NCBI GenBank assembly: GCA_030710605.1
Contig: CP092864.1
Coordinates: 139,481,418-139,545,417, forward strand
Reading direction: 5' to 3'
Length of the DNA stretch: 64,000 bases
Source: Cordylochernes scorpioides
Taxonomy: Eukaryota
How positions within the stretch are numbered: the first letter of the stretch is position 1; every line of letters begins with the position of its first letter. Shown piece after piece: positions 549-45,421 of this stretch. The notes beneath the pieces are model-generated. The model saw only the letters and a program-made list of their open reading frames with translations. It did no database searches and was not told the origin of the DNA. A program made the translations under genes and the position numbers.

Positions 549-2310
549 TGTTGGGGCACGTTTTTGTAACCATACCCCAACAGAAGGCGTATGTATAATC
601 AAATCAAATGGATACATGGCTTCCCTCCCACATAGACTTACAGACCATTCTTTTTGCCCAGAAACCTAGACAACAGATGACACCAGACTTCCATGCCGAA
701 AGCTGATGCCTGGTAAAGAAGAAGACATCCAGAGACATCCGAGCTGGAAACTGTTGTTTCATATGTACATATATTCCCCTCACCAAAAATTTAGGTAAAG
801 GTGACCAGAAAAAAAAAATGGAGAAGGAAGATCTCTAAAAGACTGAACCGAGAAAGGAAAGCGTTATATTACAGTGCAAGTGAAAAGGGGCCTGTGTCAA
901 TTTTAGCTAAGACGGAGGGGGGGAGCGATATATATATATCATCCCGAGAAAAAGGGAGGATGATATTTCAATCCATGTGGATGGGAGGGCTGGCGTCTGA
1001 AATTTTACACTATCGCCGTAGATGTTACTCTCTTTAGATTTTTGTTTTGGTAATACTATATGTTCTATTTTGATGGAAGAGGCCTGGAGTCTGAAATCTT
1101 ACACTAGTGCCATGTTGTTTCTCTTTTGAGATTTTTTTTTGTTTTGGTAATACGATATGTTCTTTTTTTGGTGAGGCCTGGGGCGTCTATGAAATTGATA
1201 CTGGAGCCGTTGGCCATTTGGATTGGTTTTCTTTCGGCGAATGAAAATGGAGAGAGGGAGGATATAAAGGAAGGTTCTTTGCCAAAAGGCAGGATTCGAT
1301 CGGAGTCGCTCAGTGAGAAGGACGATTTTTAGACGGGCCTGAGACGTAGAGGAGACCAGACCTTGCCGCCGCTTTCGAGAGAAGGTAAGCCCCTTGCCAT
1401 TATGGCTTAGCCCCCTTTTTTTTTTTTTTTTTTTTTTTTCGAACAGAAGCTAATCTATTTAGATTCTGAATGGGCCCTAAAGGGCTTTAAGTGACTTAAA
1501 AAGGAGTGTTAGGGTTCGTATATTTTGTCCCGCTAGAATAGATGGAGATCTAGGTTTCCCCCCCTTTTTGTGTAGTAGCCAACCTAGATTTCGCATGGGC
1601 CTTAAAGGGCTATAAAGTAACTTCAGGTCACCTCTATCTAAATTTTACTATGTAAATAGCATATCTCGTCAGTATAGACATGTTCCCAAATTTTAAGATA
1701 TTTTAAATAAATGTCTAGAGAAATTTTCTTGTTTCCTCTGTTACCTATTTCATACATAATTTGCCTTATGGTGCTATTCCCACTGTTTAAATGAAATGTT
1801 GTATGTTTCTTACCTATTTGAAGGGAATGTTACTAATAATCAAGTCTCCCATAAATTACCGGCCACATACATTGCCGCGAGTGTCTGTGTTTCATTGTTT
1901 TATAGATTGCCCAATTTAATAACGATTTCATGGGTTGTCTGATAATATTGTATAATAGTGTCGCGGCTGTTTCCATCTTTAGACCATTGTTCTGACAATA
2001 TTATATGCTCGATCCTTGCTTTAGCTCAACTCTTAATCAATTACAGAGTTTTTCCCCCCTTTTCTTTTTTATTTATTTTATTTATCCTGTTTGCATAAAT
2101 TGCATTACATGTGATGATGTAAAGACATATGCCGATAGTGCATCACTGACAGCTGTGCTGCTATTATACAACATTAAGGTCTTGCTGTGGGTTATATACA
2201 TGGGGTTGTTGGCCTAAATTGCTATATATATATATACTTAAGTAAGGAAACTTTTAATAAGATACATCGTGTATCCTCCCTTTTCAACTATCCAAACCGG
2301 GAACCCATCA
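549..2310 (+). repeat. A-type interspersed repeat, copy 1 (TG...CA termini; internal CCAAT, TATA and exon-like segment with GTAAGC donor)
   Basis: Near-identical to 29198-30972. The ORFs at 604-786, 1126-1332 and 2005-2217 recur at 29253-29435, 29801-29989 and 30667-30879. Starts TGTTGGGGCACG and ends AACCCATCA. TATA-like GATATAAAGG near 1262 and GAAGGTAAGC near 1379. Confidence 0.8.
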
Positions 2311-2918
2311 ATGTCGCCCGCCGCGGGGCTCGAATTTAGTATATGTTTCTTCCCCTATACTTTAGAAATATATACCTAATGAAAAGCCATACTATTTTTA
2401 AGTATTGGTGAAGTAGTCCACGCATCCTGAGATTAACAGTCTATTATAAATCGTGAATTTTAATTTATGCTTTCCGTTTCACTGGCATTTTATCAGGCAA
2501 TGAAAGTTATGTTGAGGCGGTGTATACCGCATCTCTCGCCGCTGTCTTTTACGATTCACATTGTTTGTGGCAAAAACCTTAATATTATCATTGATTTCTG
2601 ATATCAAAGTAAAACGTCTATGGGGATGAGTATCTTGTATTCTGGTCTTCTCGAGCTTTCGAGCTTGTCCGCCCTTCTACAGGAGAAACATATACAATAT
2701 ATCAAGAAAATATAACGTCGCCTGATGCTAAAACTATTATGATTCTATGTACATATATATATATACATTAGGAAGTTTTGCATATTATTTGTTTTCTTAA
2801 GACATATTTTTTTGATTAAGGTATTACACATATTCTACTATTGTTTGCTATATTCTATGAATTATCTTATAGGTTAGAAATTCTATTATTTAAGTAGTTT
2901 TATAATAGTTATTGGCTA
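2311..2918 (+). repeat. C-type repeat, copy 1 (about 600 bp, starts GTCGCCCG..GGGGCTCGAATTTAGTATAT, ends GTTATTGGCTAT)
   Basis: Homologous to 6050-6828 (a longer variant) along its whole length. Smaller C-like fragments carrying the AGCTTTCGGG..CCCTTCTACAGGAG motif occur near 56300 and 59935. Confidence 0.7.
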
Positions 2919-5900
2919 TGTTGGGTCAGTTTTTCCATTAAACAAAACCCAACAAAGATGTAAACATTCATTTACATCATATAAACATATATATACGCAG
3001 TGTCTCGCCGAAGTGTTTGTTGCCTAGGTGGAAAACTCCCAACGATGGCCGACGATGCTCTAAAGGCCCCCTTCCCTGACGCAGGGCCTCCCTTGGAAGG
3101 ATGTGCAAAGGGCAGACACGTGAAGACACGGGTGACATCCAGAGACATCCGTGCTGAGAACTGCTGTACCATATGTACATATATTGCTGTACCATATGTA
3201 CATATATTCCCCTCATTTCCTTTTGGTAGTAGGTGACCTAAGGAAAACAATGTGTCATTTAAACATATAAATTAATAATTTTATATACTCGGGATATATA
3301 TATATATTTTTAATATAATCAAAATATATATATATATTAATTAATTCCCAAAGGAATTAATTTTAGGGGTTAATTTGTTTTATCCAATATACGATTTCTT
3401 TCTCGCGCGGCAACACGGGAAATTGGGGGCGTGGTCATGGGGGGACGTGCGTGTTTTCTTCCGACGAATGGAGATGCCCATTGATCACGTGGGTGTTTGC
3501 CCTCGGCGAATCAAAATGCCAGCCAATAAAGGCTTTGGCATGATCAACGAATGGAAATGAAGAAAGACTAGTATAAAAGGGCCCGTTTTTGACTAAAAAA
3601 GGATCAGACAGAGAGAGCCGCTCAGTGACAGTAGAGAATTTATCCAGACGAGCCTGGGACGTAGAGGAGACAGTCCGTGCCGCCGCTTTCCGAAAGAAGG
3701 TAAGCACGCCATTATGGCCCAACTCCCTTTCATAGTTTTCAATTAGAAACAGTTCTATTTAGAATCAGAATGGGCCCTAAAAGGGCTTTAAATACAAGAT
3801 AGAATGTTTGTATTTTCGTGTCTTGTCCCGTTAGAAGGGATGGAGATCTATGTTCTCCAATCTATAGAGAGGAAATAGTATCCTTAAGTCACCCTACCTA
3901 TATTATTATGTAAATAGTATGTCCCGCCAGCATAAAAAAAAAAAATGCCCCCAAAAATATGAATAGTTCAAATAAATATCCGATACATATCGTATGAGAG
4001 TAATTTCTTGTTCTCTCTCCTACATACTCCATTCTTTTGCCCTATGATGTTACTCCCACTGTATAAATGAAATGTTGTATGTTTCTTATCTATTTGAAGG
4101 GAATGTTGCTAATAATTAGGTCTCCATAAATTGCCGGTCATATACATCGTTGCAAGTGTCTGTGTTTCAGTGTGCCTGCATCATGTCTACTTTATATTGT
4201 TCATTGATTTAAAATTAATAAGATACATGTTGTCTTAAAACTCATTAGGTTGTTCTCTTTACGGCTTTATTGAAGACCCAGGTTTTAGATATATTATGAT
4301 TGTTAATGTCAATGGCATAAGTCTATAGTTTGCTTGTCCTTTATTATTAGATTTTTGGTGTAATCTTCATAAATAGAGTTCTTCCCATATATCCAGATGG
4401 TAACATACTTATCGCATCTTGTTGAATCTTTACTATAAAGGATTAGGATTAATGTATACCTGCATGTGCGGCCAGATTTTCCACCAATGGAGTCTGAATC
4501 AGGTACTTCATGATATCTACTTTGAAATATTGTTTTCCGCCCACTATACTTCAATAGAAATATTAGTTTGGTCTTGTATATTCAGGATTTTAGTCTCTAA
4601 TAGTAACATGTTCATCTTTTCTGAGATCTTCCAAAGTCGTTGGATGATCTCAAAGGACGTGACACAAAGAGATGGGTGCGTCACGGACCAAAGTCCGTTG
4701 GACTGTAGGGGCGGTAAAATGGATGGCGGTTCCATTCCAGCGTCTATCTTTATGATGGGAGAGCCGTTCACTATTAAGGGTATAGTTTGCTTGTCCTTAA
4801 ATCTTATTTGTTAGTCTTCAGATATAACCTTCACAAGTAGGGTTCCTTCTACATATATCCAGATAGCAAAATAATTCAAATATCTTAACCACTTGTTATA
4901 TGCTAAGTACAGACTATTTACATATTTTTAAACTAAGGTTAAATTATTATATAATAAAAATATAACTTATGAAATTTGAATTAGCCATGGAGCAGAGTTA
5001 TGGCTATTGTATCTTTTTATTCTGATTTCTGACTATTGCGCTTATGTCAGGTATGTTTCTATAATATATCCCTATACCATATTTTCTAATTCTTCGGGCT
5101 ATTGTTAAGCAGTTAGGAGGGTAAGGTGTGATGCAAATAGATCTATATGTATGACTACTGTCTGTGTCATTTGGGTTATAAAAAGAAAGGGGGATGCCTT
5201 AATATGAATCTATCCGCAATTGACCTGTAGAAATTATAGAGATCTATTGCTATAATCTATTGCTATTGCTATGTCTTGATGACAGAGCCGACCATTATTT
5301 CACAAATCATTTTAACGTAGTGAAGGAACAGGAATAATTCGATATTTCCCCCCTTTCTTCCTAATTACACGTGAGCCCTAATTTAATGGGAGTGTCTTTA
5401 CACATCTGTCCTAAACTTCCCACACTATATCCCTTGTGTATAAATCTATTTTTTTAATTCATCTGTAGAAATATAGAGATCTGTTGCTATAATTTCCTCT
5501 ATGAAGTAGCTACCAGCGTCTTCAGTAGGTGGCTAAATCGTTAGAAGGCGATTCTTTTAGAGGAATGGTTGAAACAACGAGGGAGGCAAAGGAAGGGTCC
5601 GCCATTTTTCTTTCATGGAAGAAGAAGCAGGAGAGAGTATGGATGTAAGTTGAAACCCCTGAGACGTTTGGACCCCACATTCCTGAGACATCGTTAGTTC
5701 GCGCGCGAAGGATCCATCAACGGGACTGCCTGACGCTGGGCCCCTTTCCCCCCCCCCCGCTATTAGTGGAATTCCACCCACGCCTGGCGTGGTTGGAAGC
5801 CTCACTTGGAACTGCATTCCTCTAAATCCTTCTGTACTTTGTATATTATCTGATATTCCATTCTTCCAATTATAGTTCTTATGCTCAAGTGCTACATTGC

Positions 5901-6049
5901 TTATCTCTATATCAAACGCCTTGCCTATTGTGGTAGAGACCCAGTTACCAAAATGTTACATTTGCAGTTTTTTTTTATAAATAAATTTTTTGTATTAAGT
6001 CACTCCCTACATGCTCCGTTCTCGTAGGTCTAAAATAGGGAACGCGACA
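2919..6049 (+). repeat. B-type interspersed repeat, copy 1 (about 3.1 kb; paralogous to the A-type over its first ~1.3 kb)
   Basis: Near-identical to 18959-22094, with identical ORF sets (2972-3250 = 19012-19290 and so on). Starts TGTTGGGTCAG and ends GGGAACGCGACA. Has CCAAT (GCCAGCCAATAAAGG), E-box CACGTG, TATA (TATAAAAGGGCC, 3583) and GAAGGTAAGC (3705). Confidence 0.85.
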
Positions 6050-6828
6050 GTGGCGCCCAACGTGGGGCACGAATTTAGTATATATTTCATCTTGAATACT
6101 TTAGAAATATATACCTAATGAAAAGCCATAATATTTAATTATTTAATTAATAAAATTGGTGAAGTAATTCACACCCTGAGTTAAGAGTCTATATCTAAAG
6201 TGACTTACAAAAATTTCGAGTTGTCTTACTTAAGGAATGTCATGTTGTCACCTTGTGATTTTCCGTTAATTTTAAGAGCTATTCATAGCGTCCTTTCAGT
6301 ATTCTAACCGCACCTACTGATACGGTTTAAATCGTGAATTTTAATTTATGCTTTCCGTTTCGCTGGTATTTTATCGGGCAATAAAAGTTAAGTTGAGGCG
6401 ATGTCTACCACAACACTCGTCGCTGTCATTTACGATTCACATTGTTTGTGACAAAGCCTTAATAATATCACTGATTTCTGATATCAAAGTAGAACGTTTA
6501 TGGGGATGAGTATCTTTTATTCAGGTCTTCTCAAGCTTTCGGGCTTGTCAGCCCTTCTGCAGGAGAAACATATACAATATATCGAGAAAATATAATGCCG
6601 CCTGCTGCTAAAACTATTATGATTCTATATACATATATGTATATATATATATATTAGGATGTTTTAGCATATTATTTGTTTACTTAAGATACACTCTTTT
6701 TAACTGGTTAAGGTATTTACATATTCTACTATTGTTTGCTATATTCTATGAATTATCTTATAAGTTAGGAATTCTATTATTTAAGTTAGTTTTATAACGG
6801 TTATTGGCTATTACATACAAGTTCATTA
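6050..6828 (+). repeat. C-type repeat, copy 2, inserted within B copy 1 (absent at the orthologous point 22094/22095 of B copy 2)
   Basis: B copy 2 reads GCGACAG|CTATTACATA where B copy 1 has GCGACAG[779 bp C-type]CTATTACATACAAG. Confidence 0.7.
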
Positions 6829-7140
6829 TATTATTATTGATATTGCTAGTTGGTACTAGGATATATTGTGTTATATGCTTCGGGCAAATCTATTTTCTAT
6901 TAACGTTATTGTGTTTTCTGAATAACTGAAGGATCAATTATAAGTCTTTGATATTTACTGTTTATATTATTGTAATGTATTCTATGCTTCTCCTAGAGCG
7001 AAAGTGTGACTTGTTTCTTTACAGTGTAGGAAGAATTAGAGATCTATTGTCTTATTTAATAATGTTGCGTCTATGTTCATATATTCTATTGATGTCTCTC
7101 CTTCCTGTCTCCACCACGTACTTGGCTTAGCAGTTGTTTC
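6829..7140 (+). repeat. Tail segment shared by both B copies (matches 22095-22425)
   Basis: Homology with the sequence after B copy 2 continues for about 310 bp. Confidence 0.6.
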
Positions 7141-10129
7141 ACCCTATGGAATATATTGTCTTTTATGTCTGTTTGGTTAGTGAGTTTTTATGATATTAGG
7201 ATTATTTTAGATAGTTGATTTTAATGGTGGAGACTATATTAGGTGAATTACAGTAATATGCTTGGATGCCAAAGTTCCTTAGGTAATTGACTATAGTTAT
7301 AGATATTTGTGAGTATGTAGTGTAACATATCGCCCTATAGATACTTGTGGTTTTATTTATTGGGTTATTGATTGTTACACTTTTGTGGAAAGTTTTCTTT
7401 TTATTAATATAAAGGTGGTTGGGCATCCTGCTTGCTGGACATTATTTATAATGTTCTGTGTTTCAATCAATTTTGGATTCTGTTGCGAGCACCATTGATT
7501 ACAATTTTTTTTTCTAAATTGTTTTATACAGTATGAGAAATGCGGTTGGGTTGCCATGGATCAAAATCTAGGACAGTAACCCGTGTCTTACAGTAGTCTA
7601 CTGAAATGACTTAGAATTTCCTCTCATCACAGCCCTGATATAATCTCTCTCACAGCAGAAGTGAGTCCTGATAATTATTACTGGCTACAATTTATTAACT
7701 TTACTTTAATAGCGCTTCCTGCCAGGTCATACTAGTCTGTGCGTCCAGAATTAGAAATAATATGCCTGGAGATAGTTATTCTATTTTATTTATACAGCTC
7801 ATAGTGGATTGGGAGAGTGACAGACACACGAGCCTTAAGGCAGAATTAGAATGGGAGATCCAGTGTAGCGCACCCGTGAAGAGAGAAGTTTTGACCACCA
7901 TCTCTTCGTAAACCTTTTCTTTTAATTTGAAATCAGTAATGAATAGAAATCTGGTTCTTAATATTCCAATGGCAGAATTTCAAGGGATAGATATAGCGAC
8001 CAATTTGCGCGAGTACTTTTAATCACTGTGGAAGTATTTATCAACTTATGACAACTACCTGGGATAATCTTTAAATATATTCAAAGAAAAGAGAGATGAC
8101 TGGAGCTTGTGTCTGCAAGACAGATGAGATATCCCGAGGCATGCGTGGACAGCCTTAAGTAAATGACAAGGCAGCAAAAGCCAACTGTGTTAGAGACAGG
8201 ATCTATCTAATATTTGGGGGTATAAGGGACAGGAGAGTTTATCGAGGCTCGATTTGATACTAATATATATAATGAGGAGGTTAGCGAAATGAGGATCTCC
8301 AGCGCGAAGTAATATCACCTGAAGGCTGTGAAGGAGGGAGAATGAAGCCGGGACACCCGAGCAAGGATATTACGTTGAATGCAATTCGGAGCCTATAGGC
8401 GTGAGGCGGCGTCGTGATTGGTTAGAAGGCTAGATGCGCGAGGAAGGGCGGTCCCCTTTGACGTCGTTTTCTGCCAAGTTAAGATCACTGGATGCCGATA
8501 GATCGCCAAAAAGGGTGTGTGCACCACATGGAAATTGTCATTGAAGATGTGCCAGCATGACGAGGAAGAAGATCTAGGACGAGATGACGTTTCCCTAAAT
8601 TTGACACTCATAAGGTGCTACGCCTGGACAATAGATGGAGCAGTGAAGTCCATCTAGAAATTAGCGCTAATTCCAGAACAAAATGTGTTTAGATTGAGCT
8701 GAGGTTTCCTCTCCATATCATATATACTCCTGTAAATCCTTAGATGTCCACATGTATTTCCACAGTGAATTATACCCGCTGCACACCTATATCTCATGAG
8801 CCAGGAATGTAATTACCAGTCTGACAGTAATAAAGAATAATATGAGTTCTCTGACCCAGTAACAAACAAAACCCATGGTATGCAACAAAGTCCAACAAAA
8901 GTAATTCCCCTGCAAGATTCACAGTATTACATTATAACCCAACAGAAAACTCAGTTAAAATAGATGTCCTAAAGGGCGAAATAACTTTGTCATCTCCCAG
9001 CTCAAAAATGCAACTGTTATCCCGTAGACAATGATATTATAACCGCATTTTATTCAGTACCAGCAGATTGTAAGAGGGATGAACCCATGGAATTAGAACT
9101 TCCAATCACTGCACCTCATACTGTATAAATACAAAAGAAAGGCTTCTGATAACAGTCTCTAAGTGGCAATGGACTCGTACACGTGTTATGAGATCAAGTA
9201 AATTGGTAGGATAGGGCCCCAGATATTCTACAATTGTGTATTCATAGTTTGTAAGTTGTAAACAATGTGCCAGAGATCTTCCAGGTCTTAGACGCGCCAT
9301 TCGAGTATGTCCCAGAGGGGAAAGGCACCACGACGGCCAATTTCCTAAAAAGGCCTCGTGCGGGGGTGATAAAAGATTTGCAGCTGAGGCAATTAACGAT
9401 AGAAACCGTGGGCCCCCTGCCTCCCTTTTGGGAGATAATGACCGGACGTGAGAGGGTCTGCTTTAGCTTGTAAAAATTGAGGATGTTAAAACACACAGAG
9501 CAGTTTGTGTAAGCTGCTTTATCTAAATCTAGGCAACTGTATACACTAATTTATCCGCGTAGGTTTAAATTAGTTTTAATATTAGGTTATATATTAAATA
9601 ACAAATGTTTGTGTAAGCTAATTTACCTAGATTTCAGTGACTGTATACACTAATTTATATATTTAGGTCTTTTATTTGTTATAATATTGGGCTATATTAT
9701 ATAACAAATAAGTATTCTCCTGTTAAGAAACGAATTTTTTTGTTCACTGCAATCTTGGCCTTAATGCTGATATATGATATTTAAGAGTTACTTAGTTTTT
9801 TTTTTTTTATTAACAACACTCTGTTTTTGTTATAGGCTGTGATTTAAAGAGTTCCAGCTTTCTTTTATTTTTCTAGCTGCGAGTTTGTTTTCTCCTTTAT
9901 AGTATTGTAATGAGCCTTAAGATTTCAATTTTTTTATTTAAGTTAACAATTTTTGTCTTAAGTACCATGGTGAACTTTAAATAGTTTGCAGTTCTTCCTT
10001 TTATTTTTTTTAAACCATAACGTTTGTTCTAGTGCTGAGTGACAGTTGAAAGGAACTTTAACACCCTGTTTTAGTGTTTGTGTGCTAATTGTCCCAACCT
10101 TGTTTTTTTTGTGCAGTATATCGTCTCAC

Positions 10130-10870
10130 AACCCGTCTTAATGTTAGTCCACAGTTAATAGGATTTTTTTTTACAACCTGTTTTAATGTTAGTCCATCCT
10201 TAAAGAATTTTCACAACCCGTTTTAAAGTTAGTGTATCGTTTGTCACAACCTCGTTTTTGTGTAGCTCATTGTCGAAGAGAGTTTTCACAACAGTGTCTT
10301 AATGTTAGTCCACAGTTAATAGGATTTTTTTTTTCACAACCTTGTTTTAAATGTTAGAGTGTCATTTGTAACAACCTTTTCACAACCTCGTTTCAGTGTA
10401 GCTCATTGTTGAAGAGAGCTTTCACAACAGTGTCTTGATGTTGGTCCACAGTTAAAAAGGAGTTTTTTTTTCTCACAACCTTATTTTTAATGATAGTTTG
10501 TCATCTTTATGAGTTGTGTCACAACCTTGTTGTAATACAACACATCGTTTTGAAGAGCTTTCGCAATCCTGTCAGGATATGATTTAGGAAAACTTTAGTT
10601 TTTACTTTTGTTTTTTTTATGCTCCAATTTCGTTCTTTTATAGAACCTTCAAATTTCTCACAACGCGATGTCTGCGTTCACATCACTAGGGTTTCTTTTA
10701 TAAGAATCATTTTTTTTACAACGCGATGTCTGCGTTCACGTCACTCAGGTTTCTTTTATAGAACCTTCATTTTCACAACGCGATGTCTGCGTTCACATCA
10801 CTCGGGTTTCCTTTTTAGAATCTCCATTTTACACAACGCGATGGTTGCGTTCACATCACTACATACTTAC
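10130..10870 (+). repeat. Two tandem arrays in the gypsy 5' leader: ~100-bp units (10130-10560) and 57-bp units x4 (10640-10870)
   Basis: Repeated CACAACC..GTTTTAATGTTAGTCCACAGTTAATAGGATTTTTTTT units and repeated TTTCACAACGCGATGTCTGCGTTCACATCACTCGGGTTTC units. The ORF at 10619-10933 is an artifact of the repeats. Confidence 0.8.
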
Positions 10871-11075
10871 ATGTATGGTTTCTATGTTATTGAATACCAG
10901 TTTCCTTTGAAACGTGAACCCCATAGTGTTTAGGAACATGATTAAGAAAGGACCCCCCCCTTTTCTTTCTGTTTTGTGTTCCCTACTCCGCCCGCCCCTA
11001 TGGGTCCTGATACTACAGTTACAACCAGGGTGAATGACTAATACCTAGTTCCTGTAGATCCAACAACTGAGGACC

Positions 11076-12077
11076 ATGCCTGCCGATGAAGAGAATGCCG
11101 CAACTAGCCAAGCCCAGCTGCCCTCCATGCTGTACAACCTGGAGAAGTTTGAAGGGAAGGGCATAGTCCCCTTCACAAAGTTCATAAAGGACTTTGAACT
11201 TGTCTACGACCTGAAGGCCCTAGACGACGCCAGGAAGAGAATCCTGTTGGACAACCACCTCCGGGGGGCTGCGAGAGAGTTTGCTCTACAATCTCAACAA
11301 ATCCGCCTCGGATATGAAGAATTGAAGGAGAGCCTAGAGGGGAGGTTCCGAAAGAGGGTCTCTACAAGGGAGATGAGAAGCCAGTTCTTCTCATGTAGAC
11401 AAGGGGCCGGAGAGAAAGTACGAGACTTCGCCGCACGGGTGAGCGACCTTGCAGCGGGAGCAGAGTCGGACGGCCTGAAGATAGGCACCTCGGAAATCGC
11501 GGAGGTTTTCATCGACGGACTCTGCCCCAGCCTGTGGGAGAAGGCTCATCTATACCAAGGCGAACCCTGGGAAACCCTAGTAAGCAAACTACAGTGGCTG
11601 GAACAGAGGGAGGAAGACTACAGGGAGGCGCAGCGCTCCAGCGCCGACAGGAACGGCCAGAGGCTGGGTGACATGGGCAACAAATTGGCCGACCTGGAGA
11701 AGAAAATGGAGGCACTTGCAATAGAGAACGCAGCCCTCAGAAGACAAAGAGGGAGTGCCAATATTACAAATAGCGGGGGAGGAAGGTGGCCATCACACCC
11801 CGCAGGGAGAAGGGATTACAGAGACAACTCCCAGGATAACAGGAGGGGAGCCCCCCTCAGGAACTGGCAGAGGAGGCCAGCACAACAACCACCCAGACAA
11901 CAACGGAATCCATCCCCGCCTAGACAACAAAGGAGGGAACCCAACGGTGAAAGGGAGGAGAACCCTGGAGTGGACTACAAGAAACAGGGTGCAGGGAGAC
12001 CGCCCCCCAAGTGCTACGGGTGCGGCGAGCCAGGGCATTTCATCCGAGACTGCCAGCAGAAGCAGAGAAAAAACTAG
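11076..12077 (+). CDS. gag: Gag (capsid/nucleocapsid) of the gypsy element, with a C-terminal CCHC zinc knuckle CYGCGEPGHFIRDC
   Basis: 333-aa ORF with a retrotransposon gag-like coiled region and the CX2CX4HX4C motif. It ends at TAG 12075-12077, immediately after the slippery site. Confidence 0.85.
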   Translation: MPADEENAATSQAQLPSMLYNLEKFEGKGIVPFTKFIKDFELVYDLKALDDARKRILLDNHLRGAAREFALQSQQIRLGYEELKESLEGRFRKRVSTREMRSQFFSCRQGAGEKVRDFAARVSDLAAGAESDGLKIGTSEIAEVFIDGLCPSLWEKAHLYQGEPWETLVSKLQWLEQREEDYREAQRSSADRNGQRLGDMGNKLADLEKKMEALAIENAALRRQRGSANITNSGGGRWPSHPAGRRDYRDNSQDNRRGAPLRNWQRRPAQQPPRQQRNPSPPRQQRREPNGEREENPGVDYKKQGAGRPPPKCYGCGEPGHFIRDCQQKQRKN

Positions 12078-15000
12078 GTCCGGCTTGCCTCAAGGCAGGA
12101 GGGGGATTTGCGGCCAGTTTACCTGCTATAAATGTATATATTTTGAATAAAGGGAGGTCTCTGGACGAGAAGTGTTTAAAATTTATCTTAGATTCAGGCT
12201 CAGAGGCCAACATTGTAAATATTGACAATCTAAATTTATGCACTGAGGGACTAGACAAGCCTACTTACCATAAAGGTATATCAGGAAAATCTTTAAGGTC
12301 ATTAGGGAGTGAGGTGTTAGAAATAGGGGCAGTGGTGAACGGTAAGCCCATTAGGGAGATAAGAACGACCTTCGAGTATTGTCACATGGGGGAAATAGGA
12401 ATTGATGGCATACTCGGATTACCAGGCTTCCGAGCTCTAAAACTACACCTTAGCTACGACGGTAGTATTAGGTCCGACTACGAAAGGAAGGAGGATCCGA
12501 CCAAGTCGGCCTTCCTCTCCTCACTACAAACCATAGAAATGTCTCCCCAACCACCCAGGATACCACTAAACGAGATCCACACGGGCCACGATATTTTCAG
12601 GGCCTTCAGTCATTGCTTCTGCAATGATATAAAAGATATGGGGAATGGCTCCACCATCACAGCCCCTAAACTGAGGATGCTGACTAGCAAACCAGTATAT
12701 AGGAGGCAATATCCAATCCCGAATAAACTAGTCTCAAAGGTGAAAGCGTTAGTGGACGAGCTGGAGGAAGTAGGGATAGTAGAAGGGAGCACCTCTCTGT
12801 GGAATTCCCCTCTATTCCCGGTTGCCAAAACTGATGGTAGTGTTCGCATCACCATGGATCTACGTATGATCAATGAGGCAACTGAATTCTTCCCGTTCCC
12901 GATACCCCGTGTCGAAGACAATCTGCGCGCATTTGCAGGTGCAAAGGTCTTCAGCACATTAGATCTGACTTCCGGATTCTTCCAGATCCACATCCCAGAG
13001 AGCGACAGAGATTATTTTACCTTCTCTCTGCCCTGGGGGAGATATCGATTCACACGTTTGCCACAGGGAGCTAAAAACTCAGCACAGGTCTTCCAGTGGG
13101 CCATGAACTTGGTCCTGGGTGACTTGTTGTTCAAATGCGTTCGCCTGTACATCGATGACGTCATTGTCTACAGCGACTCTCACGAGCAGCATGTAGCGGA
13201 CCTCGCCGCTGTACTCGAACGCCTGAGTAAGTTCGGTTTGAAGGCCAAATACGGGAAGAGCTATCTCTTCAGGGACTCAGTAGAGTACCTGGGTCATGTA
13301 ATCGACCAAAATGGGATCAAACCCATGTGGGATAATGTCGCCGCTCTCAGGAATTTGAAACGACCTCATAACATCAAGGCAGTCAGAAGTCTATTGGGTA
13401 CAGTGAACTACTACCGACGCTTTATTCCCAACGCAGGTGAGGTCCTGGCTCCACTGAGCAACCTATTAAGGAAGGGACATAGATTTGCTTGGGGTGTGAT
13501 AGAGCAGTCAGCCTTTGAGACGGTGAAGGGAATATTAACCAGCGAGCCACTACTAATTCACCCAACAATTGGGGTTCCTTTCATCCTGAACACTGACGCC
13601 AGTGGGATAGCGGTAGGCGCTTGCCTCCAACAGGAGGTCAATGGGACAGTGAGGCCAATTGCTTATTATAGCAAGAGACTGACTGGTCCTGAGATCCGCT
13701 ATTCCACAATAGAAAAGGAGGCTTATGCAGTAGTGTTGTCCCTACAACACTTTAAACACCTCCTGGCGGGCGGTAGAGTAGAAGTACATACTGACCATAA
13801 ACCGATTACTTATAATAAGGGGTCTGATTATAAGAACGCCCGACTGTCTAGGTGGGCAGAGATCATCCAAGACTTCAACGTTACATTCATTTATGTCCCG
13901 GGGAAGGAAAACACGATAGCCGACTTCCTTAGTAGATTCCCGTGCGAGGATGATTCAAACCTACCACAAGATAGGAGGGTAGTGGCCACGGTGGTAAGAG
14001 ACCGTCGGCCCCCCTTATTAAATAGTAATCAGATATGGGAAGGTTTACTTCAAGAGAAAGGATGGGCCCCAGTAATGGATAAGTTAACGAAATTAAAACC
14101 AAATAGCACGGAGAGGTATAATGGCCGGGAATATAGGTTACTAGACAAATACCTCGTTACAAAGAATGAAAGGGGTACCTGGGTGAAGGTGGTTCCTACA
14201 GGTTTTAGGGAAACAGTGATCAGCTATCATCATGACATCGCTACTGGAGGTCATTTCGGAGTTAGAAAGGTTATGAGAAGGCTGAAAGGTGACTATTACT
14301 GGCCTGGCATGAGGACACAAGTCCGGAAATATATACGCAGATGCGAGAGCTGCCAGCTATCGAATCAAGGCGTAGCCAAAGCCGCTAGTGCTCCCCACTT
14401 TAGACCCGAAAAACCCTTTGAGCACCTAGCTCTAGACTTCATAGGACCCTTAGAAATAACCCCACGGGGTTATTCTAGCATTCTGACCATTGTGGATCTT
14501 TTCACTAAGTTCCCAATCCTGATTCCTACTAAGGACCAGTGTGCCAATACAGTGATTAGGGCCTTGTTGGAAAGGATAATCACTACCTTTGGGGTACCAA
14601 AAACGATACTCTCTGACCGAGGATCAGCATTCATGAGTTGCGTATTCAAGGGAGTCTGCAAGGCTATGGGGGTTGGTGCAGTAAATACCACGGCCTGGAG
14701 ACCTCAGAGTAATGGCGCCGTAGAAAGGCTCAATAGGACGGTAATAGAATCTCTACGCAGGTGTACAGCGGGGAACAATTGGGATACCACCTTACCAATG
14801 GTAGCCTTAGCTATCAGGACCACTGTACACTCTAGTACTGGATTTACTCCAGCGAAACTGGTCTTCGGACATGAGATTAGGCTCCCACAACCTTTCCAGG
14901 AAGGGGAGCTTAATCCTGTATGCGAGGATTCAATTACCGAGATGGCAGCCTTCTATGAGCGGGAATTGGTGGAGGAGGTTGAAAGGGTGAGAGAGGTGGT

Positions 15001-15526
15001 GAGGCAGACTTACTTGAAGGAGCAACAAGAAGCCAGGGCTGAGTTTGAAGCTAGAGAGTTAAGGATCTTTGAAACAGGGGATCTAGCTTTGGTAAAGAGA
15101 ATGCATGAGACGAAAGGACGTCACAAATTTGAGCCAAGGTATAGAGGACCTTATGAGGTACTACAAAGGACAGGCGACACTGTCTATCTTTTGAAGGATT
15201 TGGAGACGGGGCACTTGGACAAGATTCACATAGACAGAATGAAGGCCTATCATGCCCCAGTAAAGACTTACCCTACGGGGGACGGAAACACACAAGAACA
15301 AATAGATAGTATCACTGATGATGAGGATCACTGGGTACATCCAACGTATCCCATATATTCCCATAGAACTGTAGAACCAGTGGAACCACGAGAGACAGCA
15401 ACCTTAAGGAACCCGCCTGAGGTAGTAAATAGGGCAATTGGTGGCAATGTTGACGGCCCTGGAATACGTCGTTCAACCAGGGTCAAGAGACCCACTGATT
15501 GTAAATCATGCCCAGGTTGCCATTGA
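12011..15526 (+). CDS. pol: Pol polyprotein: aspartic protease (ILDSGSEANIV), reverse transcriptase (YIDDVIVYS), RNase H, integrase (HHCC zinc finger, DDE core, GPYEVL C-terminal module)
   Basis: 1171-aa uninterrupted ORF. The domain order PR-RT-RH-IN is diagnostic of Ty3/gypsy (Metaviridae). Confidence 0.9.
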   Translation: MLRVRRARAFHPRLPAEAEKKLGPACLKAGGGFAASLPAINVYILNKGRSLDEKCLKFILDSGSEANIVNIDNLNLCTEGLDKPTYHKGISGKSLRSLGSEVLEIGAVVNGKPIREIRTTFEYCHMGEIGIDGILGLPGFRALKLHLSYDGSIRSDYERKEDPTKSAFLSSLQTIEMSPQPPRIPLNEIHTGHDIFRAFSHCFCNDIKDMGNGSTITAPKLRMLTSKPVYRRQYPIPNKLVSKVKALVDELEEVGIVEGSTSLWNSPLFPVAKTDGSVRITMDLRMINEATEFFPFPIPRVEDNLRAFAGAKVFSTLDLTSGFFQIHIPESDRDYFTFSLPWGRYRFTRLPQGAKNSAQVFQWAMNLVLGDLLFKCVRLYIDDVIVYSDSHEQHVADLAAVLERLSKFGLKAKYGKSYLFRDSVEYLGHVIDQNGIKPMWDNVAALRNLKRPHNIKAVRSLLGTVNYYRRFIPNAGEVLAPLSNLLRKGHRFAWGVIEQSAFETVKGILTSEPLLIHPTIGVPFILNTDASGIAVGACLQQEVNGTVRPIAYYSKRLTGPEIRYSTIEKEAYAVVLSLQHFKHLLAGGRVEVHTDHKPITYNKGSDYKNARLSRWAEIIQDFNVTFIYVPGKENTIADFLSRFPCEDDSNLPQDRRVVATVVRDRRPPLLNSNQIWEGLLQEKGWAPVMDKLTKLKPNSTERYNGREYRLLDKYLVTKNERGTWVKVVPTGFRETVISYHHDIATGGHFGVRKVMRRLKGDYYWPGMRTQVRKYIRRCESCQLSNQGVAKAASAPHFRPEKPFEHLALDFIGPLEITPRGYSSILTIVDLFTKFPILIPTKDQCANTVIRALLERIITTFGVPKTILSDRGSAFMSCVFKGVCKAMGVGAVNTTAWRPQSNGAVERLNRTVIESLRRCTAGNNWDTTLPMVALAIRTTVHSSTGFTPAKLVFGHEIRLPQPFQEGELNPVCEDSITEMAAFYERELVEEVERVREVVRQTYLKEQQEARAEFEARELRIFETGDLALVKRMHETKGRHKFEPRYRGPYEVLQRTGDTVYLLKDLETGHLDKIHIDRMKAYHAPVKTYPTGDGNTQEQIDSITDDEDHWVHPTYPIYSHRTVEPVEPRETATLRNPPEVVNRAIGGNVDGPGIRRSTRVKRPTDCKSCPGCH
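12068..12074 (+). promoter_or_regulatory. -1 programmed ribosomal frameshift slippery heptamer A_AAA_AAC at the gag/pol overlap
   Basis: pol (12011-15526) is in the -1 frame relative to gag. The canonical X_XXY_YYZ heptamer sits 1 nt before the gag stop, and a GC-rich region follows. Confidence 0.75.
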
Positions 15527-18500
15527 TTTGAACCTATAGAATGTGTACTAGAGTTAGTTAAATTTTGATCATAGTATGAAGTGTTAGAATGTGAGTTAAA
15601 GGCCCTAGATTGTGGTCGTAAAGAAATTTCAGTTTTTTTTTTTTTGGAGAAGCTATTCTGTATTAATAGCAAGTGGTGAATTAAGTTGAGAGTTCAACAG
15701 TGTATTTTGTTTCGATTTTTTTATTGCAGGTTTTGAACAGTGGTTCAGCTTTAAAAACAATTAAGGGGCTTAGACGCACCAGACAATTGCTGTGCTTGTA
15801 ACATATTCTCTATGGAATGACTTGGAGCTTGCGTTGGGTAAAACTTGACTCCCTGTAAATCCCTGGGTCCAGTTATACAGTCCAAAGAGAATTTCTAATG
15901 AGAGTGTGTAAGGCAATTACAGTCTAAGAATTGATGTAATAGGATAGCAAGTCATCTCTGTTGTTAAACTCCAGAACGAGCTGGGTACTGAATGCCCTAT
16001 AAGTCCAAAGAAAGAGTTTAGCTGAATAGCAGGGAAAGAAGAATGCTAATGATCCTATACGGGAAGCAGCGTTGGCAAAACACTTGTAGAACTATCATAT
16101 TTCGGCAATGAGGTAAATGCTTGAAGTTCAGCTCGCTCCATTTAAGTGCTAGTTTTGATGATTCGTTTGTCTAGACACCAAGTGTCAAGATAAGAAGATT
16201 TTCAAACTGTTAGACACACAGTTAGAGTGGTAGGTTAGATTTCAGAATACAATTGTTGACAATCATCATAGTTTGATTTATTTATCTGTTTAAATATAAA
16301 TAATGTTTATCTACGTATAGATAACTTTTATGTAGGGTTTGTATGAGGCATTTATTTAAGTCAATAGGGCTTTAGTCCCCACTTTGTTTTAATTAGAAAA
16401 CTTTATTTGATTTCACATTAGTCCTGGAATTTAGAAATTGTTAGGGTTTATTTGATAGAGATTATTGAGTGTTTTGGCGTCTATAGCAGTTTTTAACTTT
16501 AGAATGAATGCCCACAGTGACTGAATTTTTTTTTTGTTGTATGAATGAGAAGTGGAATAAATGATGAGAAGGTTAAAAACTAGTATACTGTGAGCCCAAA
16601 ATACATTAGGATAGGATTAAGGAATTTATTAGGCTCAATTTTGATTTTGATTTCTTTATTTGTTAGGACCGGATGGCCTCACAGGACTGTACAACTCTAC
16701 TATTAGGAAAGGAATTCGCTCCATTTTGTTAGGTCTCCTCCAATGGGAGTATAAATTTGATTTCTATTATTAGGGTAATCAATCACCCCATTTCATCATA
16801 TCAACTTGAATTCTAAGAGTCGTAGATAATGATCATATCTCGATTCTCAGACTGGAAGGTTGTGGGAGGTTATGATCAGACCAGAAAACCCACCAAACTT
16901 CTCCTCATTAGAGGGAACGGAGAGGTATCAGGTGAACTTTGTGCTAGGTGGGGGGATTCAGTTGCCGACGTCGCAGACTAAGTGTAAAGCGACGAAAACC
17001 TCGGGTAAACGATCTGACATCGTAATTTACGACGCTTTGAGCGTGACTGAGATGAGGGTGGTTCAGACGGCAGGTTGAGAAGGTTCGGCGCGTTGAAGCT
17101 CCTCTATAAATTGCGCAGCTTGGAACCAATCCCCGATAGACAGAAACTTCGAAACATGTGCTGGGTAAATCAGTCCCTATAACTCCTTGATTTTAGGTCA
17201 CAGTCTAAAGGGGGTTTCTAATGAGAGTTAACAATGAGAGAGCGTGTAAAAGACAAGTTATGATTAGACGACGCGATTCCGTCTACAGATTTTTAGGTAC
17301 CAGTTAGCAAAGTGACAGATGGACTGTCCAGATTCTTTGCGTTTATATCGCCCCAGGCTAGCAAAAGTTAATCACCTAACTAAAGACTATCAGTCTACCA
17401 TACGTTTAGTTAAGACGAATTTAGGTCTAAATATCAGTTAATAAGTAGAAATTTTCTTTTTGTTACGAGAGTAACTCATCATAAGATAAGGTAAATTTTA
17501 AATTAGTAGGACTTTTAAATGAACTTCTGAGGCAGATCACCAGAACAAGCCAGTGTAGCTTTCAGACCTAAGAAGGAAGAATTTTTTTTTTTTGGAAAGA
17601 TCGATTCGGCCGTGAAAAGGCCTAGAGCAATGAGCTAGTCTTATTTTATTGTAGACATAGAATAGAATATTTTCAGAGAGGTGTTAAGAACTCGAGTTGC
17701 GGGTAGAAGGTATGAGTACACATTCTATAGATCATCTAAACAATGTATAATAGGGGTTAACTACATGTTCAGGTAAAGAACAAAGATAGGTTAGATTGTC
17801 ATCACGATAAGGTGACTTAGAAATAACCTGGTTTGGGAACGTATTGGCTATCATGATCCCCTTCATATATATATTCTTCCCTGATTTAAGAGAAGCGGGG
17901 AACATACCAGACAAAACACTCCCAATGACGAGTTGATAAGAACAATTTTAAGATATTCCAAGTAGAATTTGAAATACTAGTGAAATGTCCTAGACCCTCA
18001 GTGCACATCTATCCGTTTTATTATCATTATATATTCAATATTACTATATAGCATATATCATTCCTTTATTGTATTCATGTATATTTGTGTATGTAGAATT
18101 AACGAATAATTACTGTGTGTGACATTTTGGTAACGGCATTGTTTCCATCTTCAGACAAATGTACCGAATGAGGATTCTAATCACAATTTATAGATTCATC
18201 TGTTCACCATAGTATATCCTATATATATGTATATCAAACCATTCCGTTCATACCTATAGTAAACATCCATCTTAATTTTTTTTTTTCTCCGCGTATATCT
18301 GCATTGCCCCACTTTGACATACATAATATCCGTGCAAATTTAATGTGTATATTCACTTGCCACGTTTCTGTTTTGCCCTGTTATTAGTGTCATTGATAGG
18401 AGATGCAATTTTAGTATTCTTTTTTATATTACCATTACCATGGTAACCATGTATAGTCATTCCTTTGCTGTCATGTATATATCTTATAGAGTCAATAAAG

Positions 18501-18958
18501 TTTTTTTTTTTTTGGATATGTTTTAGGAATTGTACATATCTATATTAACACACACAATTCCTTGGCGCCCTTAATAATTATGTTTATCTAGGAGGTACTA
18601 ATAGTTTGTTTGTATAGAATTGATGTTTAGACCATCCCACACCTCCACCATGAGGACCATGGCTGAGAACATGTGGACTTCACTCACATCTGGGCCAAGA
18701 CCCCCCCGGGTCACAGACAGCGAAAGGGTGGGCTTAGTACATTGCTCATTAAATGGTAGAGTAGAATTTCCTCCAGTACTTACATTGAGCTAACATGTTC
18801 CAGGTTCATGGCCCGTATATTCCTCCTTTGTCCGAGTGTCAGTGATTGCTTGCTGATATCATAAAAGAATGCATTTCCCCCGGCTTCATATTTCTCATAG
18901 ACTATAAACAGATATGAATTGGAATAAACGCATTCTTTCACTCTGGTGGGGGAGGAAT

Positions 18959-21900: not shown

Positions 21901-22094
21901 TTCCATTCTTCCAATTATAGTTCTTATGCTCAAGTGCTACATTGCTTATCTCTATATCAAACGCCTTGCCTATTGTGGTAGAGACCCAGTTACCAAAATG
22001 TTACATTTGCAGTTTTTTTTGATAAATAATTTTTTTGTATTAAGTCACTCCCTACATGCTCCGTTCTCGTAGGTCTAAAATAGGGAACGCGACA
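18959..22094 (+). repeat. B-type interspersed repeat, copy 2 (tail continues to ~22425)
   Basis: Near-identical to 2919-6049. About 70 bp upstream (18890-18958) is also homologous to the sequence upstream of A copy 2 (29130-29197). Confidence 0.85.
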
Positions 22095-29197: not shown

Positions 29198-30069
29198 TGT
29201 TGGGGCACGTTTTTGTAACCATACCCCAACAGAAGGCGTATGTATAATCAAATCAAATGGATACATGGCTTCCCTCCCACATAGACTTACAGACCATTCT
29301 TTTTGCCCAGAAACCTAGACAACAGATGACACCAGACTTCCATGCCGAAAGCTGATGCCTGGTAAAGAAGAAGACATCCAGAGACATCCGAGCTGGAAAC
29401 TGTTGTTTCATATGTACATATATTCCCCTCACCAAAAATTTAGGTAAAGGTGACCAGAAAAAAAAAAAAAAAAATGGAGAAGGAAGATCTCTAAAAGACT
29501 GAACCGAGAAAGGAAAGCGTTATATTACAGTGCAAGTGAAAAGGGGCCTGTGTCAATTTTAGCTAAGACGGAGGGGGGGAGCGATATATATATATCGTCC
29601 CGAGAAAAAGGGAGGATGATATTTCAATCCATGTGGATGGGAGGGCTGGCGTCTGAAATTTTACACTATCGCCGTAGATGTTACTCTCTTTAGATTTTTG
29701 TTTTGGTAATACTATATGTTCTATTTTGATGGAAGAGGCCTGGAGTCTGAAATCTTACACTAGTGCCATGTTGTTTCTCTTTTGAGATTTTTTTTTTGTT
29801 TTGGTAATACGATATGTTCTTTTTTTGGTGAGGCCTGGGGCGTCTATGAAATTGATACTGGAGCCGTTGGACATTTGGATTGGTTTTCTTTCGGCGAATG
29901 AAAATGGAGAGAGGGAGGATATAAAAGAAGGTTCTTTGCCAAAAGGCAGGATTCGATCGGAGTCGCTCAGTGAGAAGGACGATTTTTAGACGGGCCTGAG
30001 ACGTAGAGGAGACCAGACCTTGCCGCCGCTTTCGAGAGAAGGTAAGCCCCTTGCCATTATGGCTTAGCC

Positions 30070-30101
<32 letters not shown>

Positions 30102-45408: not shown

Positions 45409-45421
45409 CCATCTTCTCTCT

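Follow-up and report, generated by a model that had tools for sequence, protein, structure and literature searches.

Two young, nested Ty3/gypsy-type retrotransposons of Cordylochernes scorpioides and a candidate promoter, splice-donor and polyadenylation module in their LTRs

In the 64,000-nt stretch of DNA from the pseudoscorpion Cordylochernes scorpioides that was analyzed here (the window), two families of repeats, A and B, carry what looks like the beginning of a gene: a TATA box, a short segment and a splice donor. The preliminary description of this DNA offered two readings, a solo-LTR or LARD-type family with a spliced leader or a family of spliced non-coding RNA genes. The questions that are raised by this locus are what these repeats are and what the gene-like part does in them. 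The first can be answered plainly. Both families of repeats are LTRs, and they belong to two young related Ty3/gypsy-type retrotransposons, A (549-30972) and B, the latter inserted within the leader of A. The elements and their terminal features are:

549-30972, plus strand: element A, a non-autonomous LARD-like element derived from Ty3/gypsy, with an LTR pair and a TSD; 11.2 kb without the nested B
549-2310, plus strand: A 5' LTR, 1762 bp, TGTTGGGG...CCCATCA
2312-2329, plus strand: sequence at the PBS position of A, TGTCGCCCGCCGCGGGGC, read directly
29198-30972, plus strand: A 3' LTR, 1775 bp, with the PPT GGCAGGGGGAGGAT directly 5' of it (29184-29197)
2919-22094, plus strand: element B, an intact Ty3/gypsy LTR retrotransposon of 19,176 bp in the A leader, with an LTR pair, a TSD and gag-pol
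2919-6049, plus strand: B 5' LTR, 3131 bp, TGTTGGG...GCGACA, the interval under study
6051-6068, plus strand: B PBS, TGGCGCCCAACGTGGGGC, of the tRNA-Lys1,2 type, 1 nt past the LTR
18959-22094, plus strand: B 3' LTR, 3136 bp, with the PPT GGTGGGGGAGGAAT directly 5' of it (18945-18958)

BLAST returned the repeat pairs of both families with exactly the boundaries first given for them, and the LTR-like TG...CA termini are present as TGTTGGG(G)...(C/A)CA. The two LTRs of A are 98.9% identical (BLAST) and differ by 4 substitutions plus homopolymer indels, while those of B are 99.5% identical (BLAST), again with 4 substitutions. Since each pair has accumulated 4 substitutions, the features found in the LTRs belong to a recently active element. 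A is flanked by the 4-bp TSD GTTG (545-548 and 30973-30976) and B by the 4-bp TSD GCTA (2915-2918 and 22095-22098). The empty site of the B insertion can be found in B's own leader, where the uninterrupted homologue TTGGCTATTACATA lies at about 6807-6820. The 18-mer of the B PBS is the tRNA-Lys1,2 PBS (PMC1084362), and the sequence at the same place in A differs from it at 4 of the 18 positions, TGG included.

Target-site duplications and internal regions were thus both found, and the repeats are fragments of larger elements, an outcome that the preliminary description had itself named as contrary to its reading. Every copy is paired and adjoins a PBS or PPT and internal sequence, and no lone LTR flanked by a TSD was seen, so that solo LTRs can be discarded. 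The LARD-type reading holds for A, which has LTRs and a PPT and is missing gag-pol. A family of spliced non-coding RNA genes, or of SL RNA genes, does not agree with pairs that flank internal regions with PBS, PPT and TSD, nor with the gag-pol of B. The Rfam search gave no family, whether SL RNA, snRNA or other, at the gathering score and only chance-level matches at E<=5.

The internal region of B is organized as follows:

6069-11075, plus strand: ORF-free leader, ~5 kb, which includes tandem-repeat arrays (10126-10860)
11076-12077, plus strand: gag, 333 aa, with the Pfam domains Retrotrans_gag and zf-CCHC (CCHC zinc knuckle)
12011-15526, plus strand: pol in the -1 frame, with a protease DSGS motif, RT, RNase H, integrase and SH3_Tf2-1
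15527-18944, plus strand: ORF-free trailer of 3.4 kb that separates pol from the PPT; a part of it (16182-17555) is conserved in A

A slippery heptamer, A_AAA_AAC, is located at 12068-12074, immediately 5' of the gag stop. In pol, the DSGS motif is at residue 61 and is followed by the Pfam domains RVT_1 (272-431), RT_RNaseH (523-622), Integrase_H2C2 (728-785) and rve (800-898). Gag and pol with the order protease-RT-RNase H-integrase are found in B only. The interval from the LTR to gag contains no ORF of at least 70 aa, and there is no env, that is, no third ORF after pol, as the plus strand of 15527-18958 has no ORF of at least 73 aa. In an insect errantivirus-type gypsy such an ORF follows pol and is expressed from a spliced mRNA, and B does not agree with this type. 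Coding sequence accounts for ~4.5 of the 19.2 kb. Many C. scorpioides proteins, encoded on several chromosomes, share 84-97% identity with B pol. As gag, pol and the frameshift site are intact and the LTRs near-identical, the B family looks active. The NCBI gene models P0001-P0018 were considered as indirect splice evidence and set aside; they are chimeric, with several transposons fused, and have no extra exon in the LTR or the leader.

The internal region of A is 7.7 kb long and is collinear with the leader and the trailer of B, and the alignment shows that B 10647-15098 is deleted in A. What remains of the coding part is the integrase C-terminal only (161 aa, 25110-25595); the rest of pol and gag are absent. 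A is LARD-like because it has no gag-pol, and presumably it depends in trans on B-type proteins. An nhmmer search with an A/B core profile detected no further copies of the core in the window, nor did any copy turn up when viral and metagenome contigs were scanned for exact patterns. The comparison set consists of two divergent lineages only, A and B, and conservation between them has little power. No published name for the B family was found in our literature search.

B resembles the Ty3/gypsy elements (Metaviridae) in its TG..CA LTRs, 4-bp TSD, PBS, PPT, CCHC gag, -1 frameshift and PR-RT-RH-IN order, and A resembles LARDs in being bounded by LTRs and having no coding capacity. Compared with animal Ty3/gypsy elements B is very large, with LTRs of 3.1 kb, a 5-kb leader, a 3.4-kb trailer and no env or extra ORF. 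Ogre and other large elements of plants, together with the non-autonomous LARDs, come nearest in size and style. In Ogre the experimentally demonstrated intron sits in the internal region and not in the LTR, according to a citation in PMC12786077.

Another question is what the gene-like part of the LTR does. Homology between the A and B LTRs is confined to a block of ~100 bp in U3 and a core of ~650 bp, and the LTRs are otherwise unrelated. We think it probable that the shared core is the elements' own promoter, R region and polyadenylation module, with a splice donor in R in a foamy-like arrangement. The features of the core are:

3444-3569, plus strand: promoter-proximal U3 repeats, two clear direct repeats of ~42 bp (3444-3527) and a third copy of their motif
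3572-3579, plus strand: TATA box of B, TATAAAAG; in A, TATAAAGG at 1263-1270
3606-3699, plus strand: candidate first exon or 5' part of R, ~94 nt, without ATG; 72-76% identical to A 1294-1384
3697-3705, plus strand: strong 5' splice site or U1 site, AAG/GTAAGC, a motif match with predicted use; in A, 1382-1390
3971-3976, plus strand: conserved AATAAA, followed by the conserved U-rich ATTTCTTGTT; in A, 1706-1711
4047-4125, plus strand: most conserved block of the LTR, 90-97% identity between A and B; in A, about 1771-1850

Retroviral U3 regions can carry enhancer repeats 5' of the TATA box, such as the tandem repeats of the murine leukaemia virus LTR. B is similar in having one motif, CGAATSRARATG, three times directly 5' of TATA (at 3465, 3507 and 3548, a spacing of about 41-42 nt), whereas A differs from this type in having a single copy. 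The motif is found only in these LTRs, and in both A and B one copy lies 24-25 nt 5' of TATA. A local peak in CpG o/e is seen at or just 5' of the TATA box in both families. A Pol II-type promoter at this TATA box is plausible, and an Inr-like ATCAGA suggests a start site near 3606 in B, with its counterpart at 1294 in A. The TATA boxes announced in the preliminary description do exist in both families, with the one in B at 3572 and not at 3583 and the one in A at 1263; the positions given there are 6-15 nt off. A CCAAT box and then an E-box had been reported for both families. They are found in B (E-box at 3486, CCAAT at 3523, within the U3 repeats) but not in A, where CACGTG is absent from the LTR and CCAAT occurs only reversed, as ATTGG at 1222.

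Downstream, the order of motifs is the same in the two families, as had been described: TATA, the donor AAG/GTAAGC, the palindrome GCCATTATGGC, GGGCCCTAAA(A)GGGC and the GU-rich TGTGTTTCAG. All of these lie inside the homologous block (68-97% identity between A and B), so that finding them conserved together adds no independent evidence. For B the positions are 3572 (TATA), 3699/3700 (donor) and 3971 (AATAAA), and for A they are 1263, 1384/1385 and 1706; in the 3' LTR of B the donor is at 19738 and the AATAAA at 20008. The donor is intact in all four LTR copies and ranks 2nd among 478 GT sites in 3560-11100, the splice-site ranks here and below being based on a rough PWM; donors of equal quality occur about once per 10 kb in the window. 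The AATAAA is the sole canonical hexamer of the A LTR and is conserved within a poorly conserved stretch. It is a candidate poly(A) signal, which would place the R/U5 boundary near 3990. Of the conserved hairpins that had been proposed, the sequences are kept in order while the stems are of 4-5 bp and thermodynamically ordinary. When exon 1 with the donor and the 4030-4175 block were each folded as single sequences, on either strand, no unusual structure emerged (z from -0.17 to +1.86). The RNAalifold covariation term for the presumed R region is about 0, a value to which the small number of sequences gives little weight. The statement that no ORF exceeds 30 codons needs correction, since an ATG ORF of 120 codons (4452-4814) is present in B and ORFs reach 70 codons in A. 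Neither those of A nor that of B gave a Pfam match or a homologue, and the region can therefore still be regarded as effectively non-coding. The 120/131-codon ORF of the B LTR, for which 5.8 billion proteins were searched, was rejected as a gene.

Based on these motifs, we infer the start site, the poly(A) site, the use of the donor and the effect of U1 in the following way. The promoter would consist of the repeated U3-proximal factor sites and the TATA box. R would begin about 30 nt 3' of TATA and end at a poly(A) site formed by AATAAA and the U/GU-rich sequence downstream of it. The donor, ~94 nt into R, would precede the poly(A) signal and so be present in both LTRs. As a binding site for U1 snRNP it may suppress the promoter-proximal poly(A) site of the 5' LTR, and as a major splice donor it may allow a gag(-pol) mRNA to bypass the ~7.4 kb of ORF-free, AUG-rich sequence that separates the start site from gag. 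In foamy viruses the major splice donor is located in R, 5' of the poly(A) signal; polyadenylation at the 5' end is suppressed by U1 snRNP bound at this site, and expression of gag depends on the donor (PMC3694450). The likeness includes the order TATA, predicted start site, strong 5' splice site and AATAAA, a donor that, judged by motif, would be at both ends of the RNA, and a donor that would be needed to express gag past a long leader. The differences are that B is a retrotransposon of a different family and that its distances are larger, with the donor at ~+94 and the AATAAA at ~+365.

Some observations do not fit easily with this module. With an R end near 3990, U5 would extend over ~2.06 kb (B) or ~0.58 kb (A), much more than is usual, and the well conserved 4047-4125 block would fall in U5. 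The donor is present in the 3' LTR as well, and therefore suppression by U1 must somehow be relieved there. The energy of a duplex in which U3 would occlude the donor was not significant: among 200 shuffles, it was equalled or bettered in a fraction of 0.075 for B and 0.36 for A. The module does not need the intron that may lie at 3700-4170. That candidate is defined by:

3700-4170, plus strand: candidate GT-AG intron, 471 nt, a motif prediction; in the A 3' copy 30042-30557, 516 nt
4157-4170, plus strand: candidate acceptor GTCTGTGTTTCAG, where the homology between A and B ends (TTTCAG/TGT)
Predicted exon-exon junctions: CCGAAAGAAG/TGTGCCTGCATC in B and TCGAGAGAAG/TGTTTTATAG in A

The exon of B would end at 3699 and the acceptor AG at 4170, instead of the junction 3705^4186 given earlier, and the candidate exon of A would end at 1384. 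A genuine GT-AG intron lying wholly in the LTR (B 3700-4170, A 30042-30557), which would produce a spliced leader of the element's RNA or spliced non-coding RNAs contained in the LTR, is in our opinion a rather unlikely option. The donor is strong and conserved, the layout of TATA, ~90-nt ATG-free segment and donor is that of a gene, and the homology between A and B stops exactly at TTTCAG/TGT. The only AATAAA common to both families falls within the candidate intron, so that splicing would take out the promoter-proximal signal. Long-read data from maize report introns in LTRs and spliced lncRNAs contained in LTRs (PMC13192763). The acceptor itself speaks less clearly. The claim that it is conserved holds for three of the four copies, including the A 3' copy (AG at 30557), while the A 5' copy reads TTTCAT (G to T at 1895), which means that one of the four substitutions in the A pair destroyed the AG. 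It is also weak (rank 65 of 467 AG sites), its pyrimidine tract is interrupted by G and another AG lies 15 nt upstream; no good branch site is found within 40 nt, and the only branch-like CTAAT is 57 nt upstream with AGs in between. The same sequence matches, at 4161, YGTGTTYY, which we take to be the consensus of the GU-rich poly(A) downstream element, and a CATAAA at 4125 lies 36 nt 5' of this match. Moreover, conservation in the LTR is highest over the last 170 nt of the candidate intron (84-97%), well beyond what splice signals need. By the standard logic of reverse transcription, a spliced RNA that is retrotransposed gives LTRs without the intron; yet the candidate intron is retained in both young families, and therefore the replicating RNA is unspliced there.

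The long U5 could be avoided if the real promoter and poly(A) signals were at the 3' end of the LTR, with a short R and U5, the core being a U3 enhancer, another cis element or an internal transcription unit and the donor incidental. U3 is normally the longest part of an LTR, and R and U5 would then have conventional lengths. In A as in B, TATA-like and AATAAA-like strings do exist at a distance of 65-90 nt from the end of the LTR (TATAAATAAA at 5976-5985 in B; TATATATA and AATAAG at 2222-2259 in A). However, AT-rich DNA is expected to contain such strings, and those of A show no homology to those of B. A canonical hexamer is lacking at this place in A; in B the signal would be used in the 3' LTR, which here has the sequence GATAAATAAT. 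The conserved TATA, the motif repeats upstream of it, the CpG peak and the conserved AATAAA would be left unexplained, and we regard this arrangement as improbable. Far less credible still is a foreign origin of the core, either as the captured 5' end of a host gene (promoter, first exon and first intron) or as independent genes resembling SL RNA or snRNA. The gene-like layout agrees with it, and the order exon, donor, hairpin, U-rich stretch, hairpin is superficially similar to SL RNA, but copies were seen only within LTRs bearing TSD, PBS and PPT, and the hairpins, with their 4-5 bp, are unstable. We know of no report of trans-splicing in arachnids. The promoter, R and poly(A) module therefore remains our preferred reading of the core.

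Spliced lncRNAs contained in LTRs were described in maize in a 2026 preprint (PMC13192763). The candidate intron is similar to these in being a GT-AG intron located entirely within the LTR of a young element, 3' of a gene-like U3 promoter. The maize cases differ in having junctions validated by long reads, typically three exons and long introns; the intron of this arachnid element is predicted from motifs and its acceptor is weak. We put forward only tentatively that the LTR of an arachnid Ty3/gypsy element may contain a 5' splice site that is functional, perhaps with an entire intron of ~470 nt, which would produce maize-like RNAs or serve a foamy-style control that silences the 5' poly(A) site and removes a 7-kb leader by splicing.

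At the level of annotation, ~30 kb of the window are accounted for by two nested, very young gypsy-type elements, and the suggested new family of spliced non-coding RNA genes is removed; in other respects this is routine transposon annotation. For an animal element, the B family is unusual in its size and in being non-coding for the most part, and A and B form a natural pair of an autonomous and a non-autonomous element, which marks candidate cis-acting sequences. Splicing inside the LTR has so far been documented in maize elements, and U1-based control of polyadenylation in foamy viruses. The conserved donor upstream of the AATAAA offers a cheap and concrete test for either process in invertebrate retrotransposons. 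If it is true that the donor works in this manner, a retrovirus-like control of RNA processing would have evolved independently in a giant invertebrate retrotransposon.

Both repeat pairs bound complete LTR-retrotransposon insertions, which refutes the suggestion in the preliminary description that they are solo LTRs, while its LTR-like or LARD-type reading was correct. Within the window the repeats are indeed fragments of larger elements, and a family of RNA genes does not fit either, as the repeats are the LTRs of complete elements and an Rfam search gave no matching family. Self-BLAST of the window confirmed the proposed repeat boundaries, with 98.9% identity for the A pair (549-2310 and 29198-30972) and 99.5% for the B pair (2919-6049 and 18959-22094). 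Just 4 substitutions were found within each pair and the differences are mostly homopolymer-length changes.

Examination of the junctions shows that the inner element, B, is a complete insertion of 19,176 bp that starts with TGTTGGG, ends with GCGACA and has a 4-bp target-site duplication, GCTA, on both sides. One base past its 5' LTR starts TGGCGCCCAACGTGGGGC, the 18-nt primer binding site (PBS) for tRNA-Lys1,2 (PMC1084362), and the polypurine tract (PPT) GGTGGGGGAGGAAT adjoins the 3' LTR on its 5' side. Pfam domains were found in the gag ORF (Retrotrans_gag and a CCHC knuckle) and in pol (12011-15526, 1171 aa; RT, RNase H and integrase), which also contains a DSGS protease motif. Pol is in the -1 frame relative to gag, and a canonical slippery heptamer, A_AAA_AAC, is located in the gag frame directly 5' of the gag stop TAG (12068-12077); this heptamer, together with the open -1 frame, suggests that B is translationally intact. 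B pol is 84-97% identical to many predicted C. scorpioides proteins on several chromosome-scale contigs, so the family is multi-copy in this pseudoscorpion genome and the window is nuclear DNA of an arachnid. The leader (6069-11075) is ~5 kb long with numerous AUGs and without any ORF of at least 70 aa, tandem arrays with units of 45, 58 and 139 bp lie just 5' of gag (10126-10860), and the 3.4 kb trailer (15527-18944) is ORF-free. Only about 4.5 of 19.2 kb are thus coding, which is unusual among animal gypsy elements. The NCBI 'K02A2.6-like' models P0001-P0018 are chimeras that join B-type gag-pol to other retrotransposon and DNA-transposon ORFs; being chimeric, they are uninformative as splice evidence for the family, and they indicate that the public protein set of C. 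scorpioides holds many transposon-derived artefacts.

The outer element, A, is also a complete insertion, with TGTTGGGG at its start, CCCATCA at its end, a flanking GTTG duplication and GGCAGGGGGAGGAT as PPT. B sits within its leader: the internal sequence of A breaks off at 2918 and restarts at 22099, and the insertion site is uninterrupted in B's own leader (equivalent TTGGCTATTACATA). Without B, A measures 11.2 kb, and its interior is collinear with the B leader and trailer (64-88% identity), but B 10647-15098, which covers gag and almost all of pol, has no counterpart in it. This makes A a LARD-like, non-autonomous relative. The sequence at its PBS position (2312-2329), TGTCGCCCGCCGCGGGGC, has 4 mismatches in 18, TGG included, to the tRNA-Lys1,2 PBS of B, too many for post-insertion decay given an LTR divergence of 0.2%; A may use another primer tRNA or may carry a 1-nt deletion at the PBS.

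The relatedness of the A and B LTRs is confined to two places, a ~100-bp block and a core of ~650 bp:

A 724-820, B 3134-3252: ~100-bp block shared by the LTRs
A 1238-1898, B 3548-4173: shared core
A 1263 (TATAAAGG), B 3572 (TATAAAAG): TATA box
A 1384, B 3699: last exon base of the donor AAG/GTAAGC
A 1396, B 3708: GCCATTATGGC
A 1472, B 3772: GGGCCCTAAA
A 1706, B 3971: conserved island around AAATAAAT, then conserved U-rich ATTTCTTGTT
A 30557 (3' copy), B 4170: end of the candidate acceptor TGTGTTTCAG

All core features described earlier were found, in the same order in A and B, at positions 6-15 nt from those first assigned. The observation was largely correct, with some over-statement: the A LTR lacks CACGTG and has CCAAT solely in the reverse form, ATTGG, and where no ORF longer than 30 codons was reported, B has an ATG ORF of 120 codons (4452-4814) and A has ATG ORFs reaching 70 codons, none with a Pfam match or a homologue.

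The B TATA box is preceded by three copies of CGAATSRARATG (3465, 3507 and 3548, a spacing of about 41-42 nt), the first two within clear ~42-bp direct repeats (3444-3527). A carries a single copy, and the TATA-proximal copy is located 24-25 nt 5' of TATA in both. The motif is absent from the rest of the 64-kb window; as the pattern was defined from these same sequences, any chance estimate for it is descriptive only. The CpG observed/expected ratio has its maximum at or just 5' of TATA in both LTRs. From an Inr-like ATCAGA, a plausible TSS is near 3606, 34 nt past the B TATA, and the ~94 nt from there to the donor are ATG-free. In a rough splice-site PWM ranking, the donor is number 2 of 478 GT sites between the putative TSS and gag, and equally good donors occur about once per 10 kb of the window. 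Past the donor, A-B conservation falls to 45-70% with several indels; the AAATAAAT island holds the sole canonical poly(A) hexamer of the entire A LTR, and conservation climbs again to 84% over B 4001-4170. Within this stretch ~80 nt (B 4047-4125, A about 1771-1850) are 90-97% identical, exceeding the putative exon 1 and the internal leader; this block contains GATA-like (AGATAA), GGAATG and TAATTA strings, and its RNA folds worse than shuffled sequences. Homology stops a few bases past GTGTCTGTGTTTCAG/TGT, and the acceptor AG is changed to AT in the A 5' LTR copy.

It was proposed that 3700-4170 is a genuine GT-AG intron inside the LTR. The donor is strong, the AG is conserved and the homology boundary coincides with the acceptor AG, yet we consider this unlikely. 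As an acceptor, the site is mediocre: it comes 65th of 467 by the same matrix, its pyrimidine tract is broken by a G, another AG lies 15 nt upstream, and the sole CTAAT-type branch site is 57 nt upstream with AGs intervening. Moreover, the acceptor string fits YGTGTTYY, the consensus of the GU-rich poly(A) downstream element, and has a CATAAA 36 nt before it and UGUA motifs upstream. The LTR's most conserved part is the 3' third of the candidate intron, which splice signals do not account for, and the sole poly(A) signal common to A and B, a signal obligatory in every LTR, falls within it. In reverse transcription, by established retroviral mechanism, the R-U5 of both new LTRs is copied from the RNA 5' end, so that a spliced template would yield LTRs without the intron; as both young families retain 3700-4170, the replicating RNA is unspliced at that segment. 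The classic Ty intron-loss experiment follows the same R-U5 logic (summarized in PMC12786077). Partial or alternative splicing would be compatible with all five counter-arguments, and a 2026 maize preprint describes abundant spliced transcripts within LTRs, called there the first evidence for LTR introns (PMC13192763).

The most likely account, and the simplest one for a core that an autonomous and a non-autonomous element have both conserved, is that the core would provide the cis functions required of an LTR, namely promoter (repeats and TATA), R and poly(A) site; such functional statements cover two lineages in one window. The donor would then be placed in R, 5' of the poly(A) signal, and hence in both LTRs. 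In its motifs, this arrangement resembles that of foamy viruses, to which it was described as unique; there, the 5' poly(A) site is suppressed by U1 snRNP sitting on the major splice donor, and gag expression depends on that donor (PMC3694450). Such a donor is clearly needed in B, where gag lies 7.4 kb past the putative TSS, separated from it by 2.4 kb of LTR and the 5-kb leader, and several acceptor-like sites were seen 5' of gag (rough PWM and sequence). Weaknesses of the cis-module account are the unusually long U5 that it implies (for B about 2.06 kb, with internal duplications; for A about 0.58 kb) and the 4047-4125 block, which has no role in it. A search for U3 sequence that could mask the 3'-end donor gave no significant result, and no covariation or unusual folding energy supported a structured RNA in the core. 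Another option is that the promoter and poly(A) signals are really at the LTR 3' end (TATAAATAAA at 5976), but the strings there in A lack homology to those in B, and the B 3' LTR carries an altered version. Two of the four B LTR-LTR substitutions are at most 10 nt apart in this region (TATAAATAAA, 5976-5985, vs GATAAATAAT, 22021-22030); this clustering could reflect chance (about 4%), a low-complexity assembly error or a functional site. Internal duplications (4318-4410 vs 4775-4876, spacing about 460 bp; 5232-5256 vs 5469-5493, about 237 bp) occur in the 3' portion of the LTR that is specific to B, which suggests that the B LTR grew via local duplication.

The remainder of the window is likewise transposon-rich. 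A second gypsy-type element, unrelated to A and B, is found at 45207-49763 (minus strand), with 100% identical 202-bp LTRs. Its pol is divided between two ORFs, one with protease, RT, RNase H and the integrase zinc finger (46373-49408) and one with the integrase core (45422-46330). Direct repeats of 700 bp (39099-39798 and 42153-42852, 99.3%) flank an interior of about 2.4 kb, with ORFs that match no Pfam family; the whole may be a small non-autonomous LTR element. A 557-aa ORF (57293-58966) contains the piggyBac-type transposase domain DDE_Tnp_1_7 in full (E 4e-71), and ORFs 32440-33060 and 37328-37879, with Mos1/Tc1-mariner-type HTH domains, are probably DNA transposon remnants. Amid the transposons are also a tandem array resembling a satellite (52553-53896, about 1.3 kb; 73-bp unit, higher-order periods of 146, 219 and 493 bp) and a tRNA-Gly(TCC) gene (54210-54280, minus strand) on which ARAGORN and Rfam agree.

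The repeats thus belong to unnamed, new but ordinary Ty3/gypsy LTR retrotransposons, notable for large size and for an RNA-processing layout that recalls foamy viruses or maize elements and is testable.
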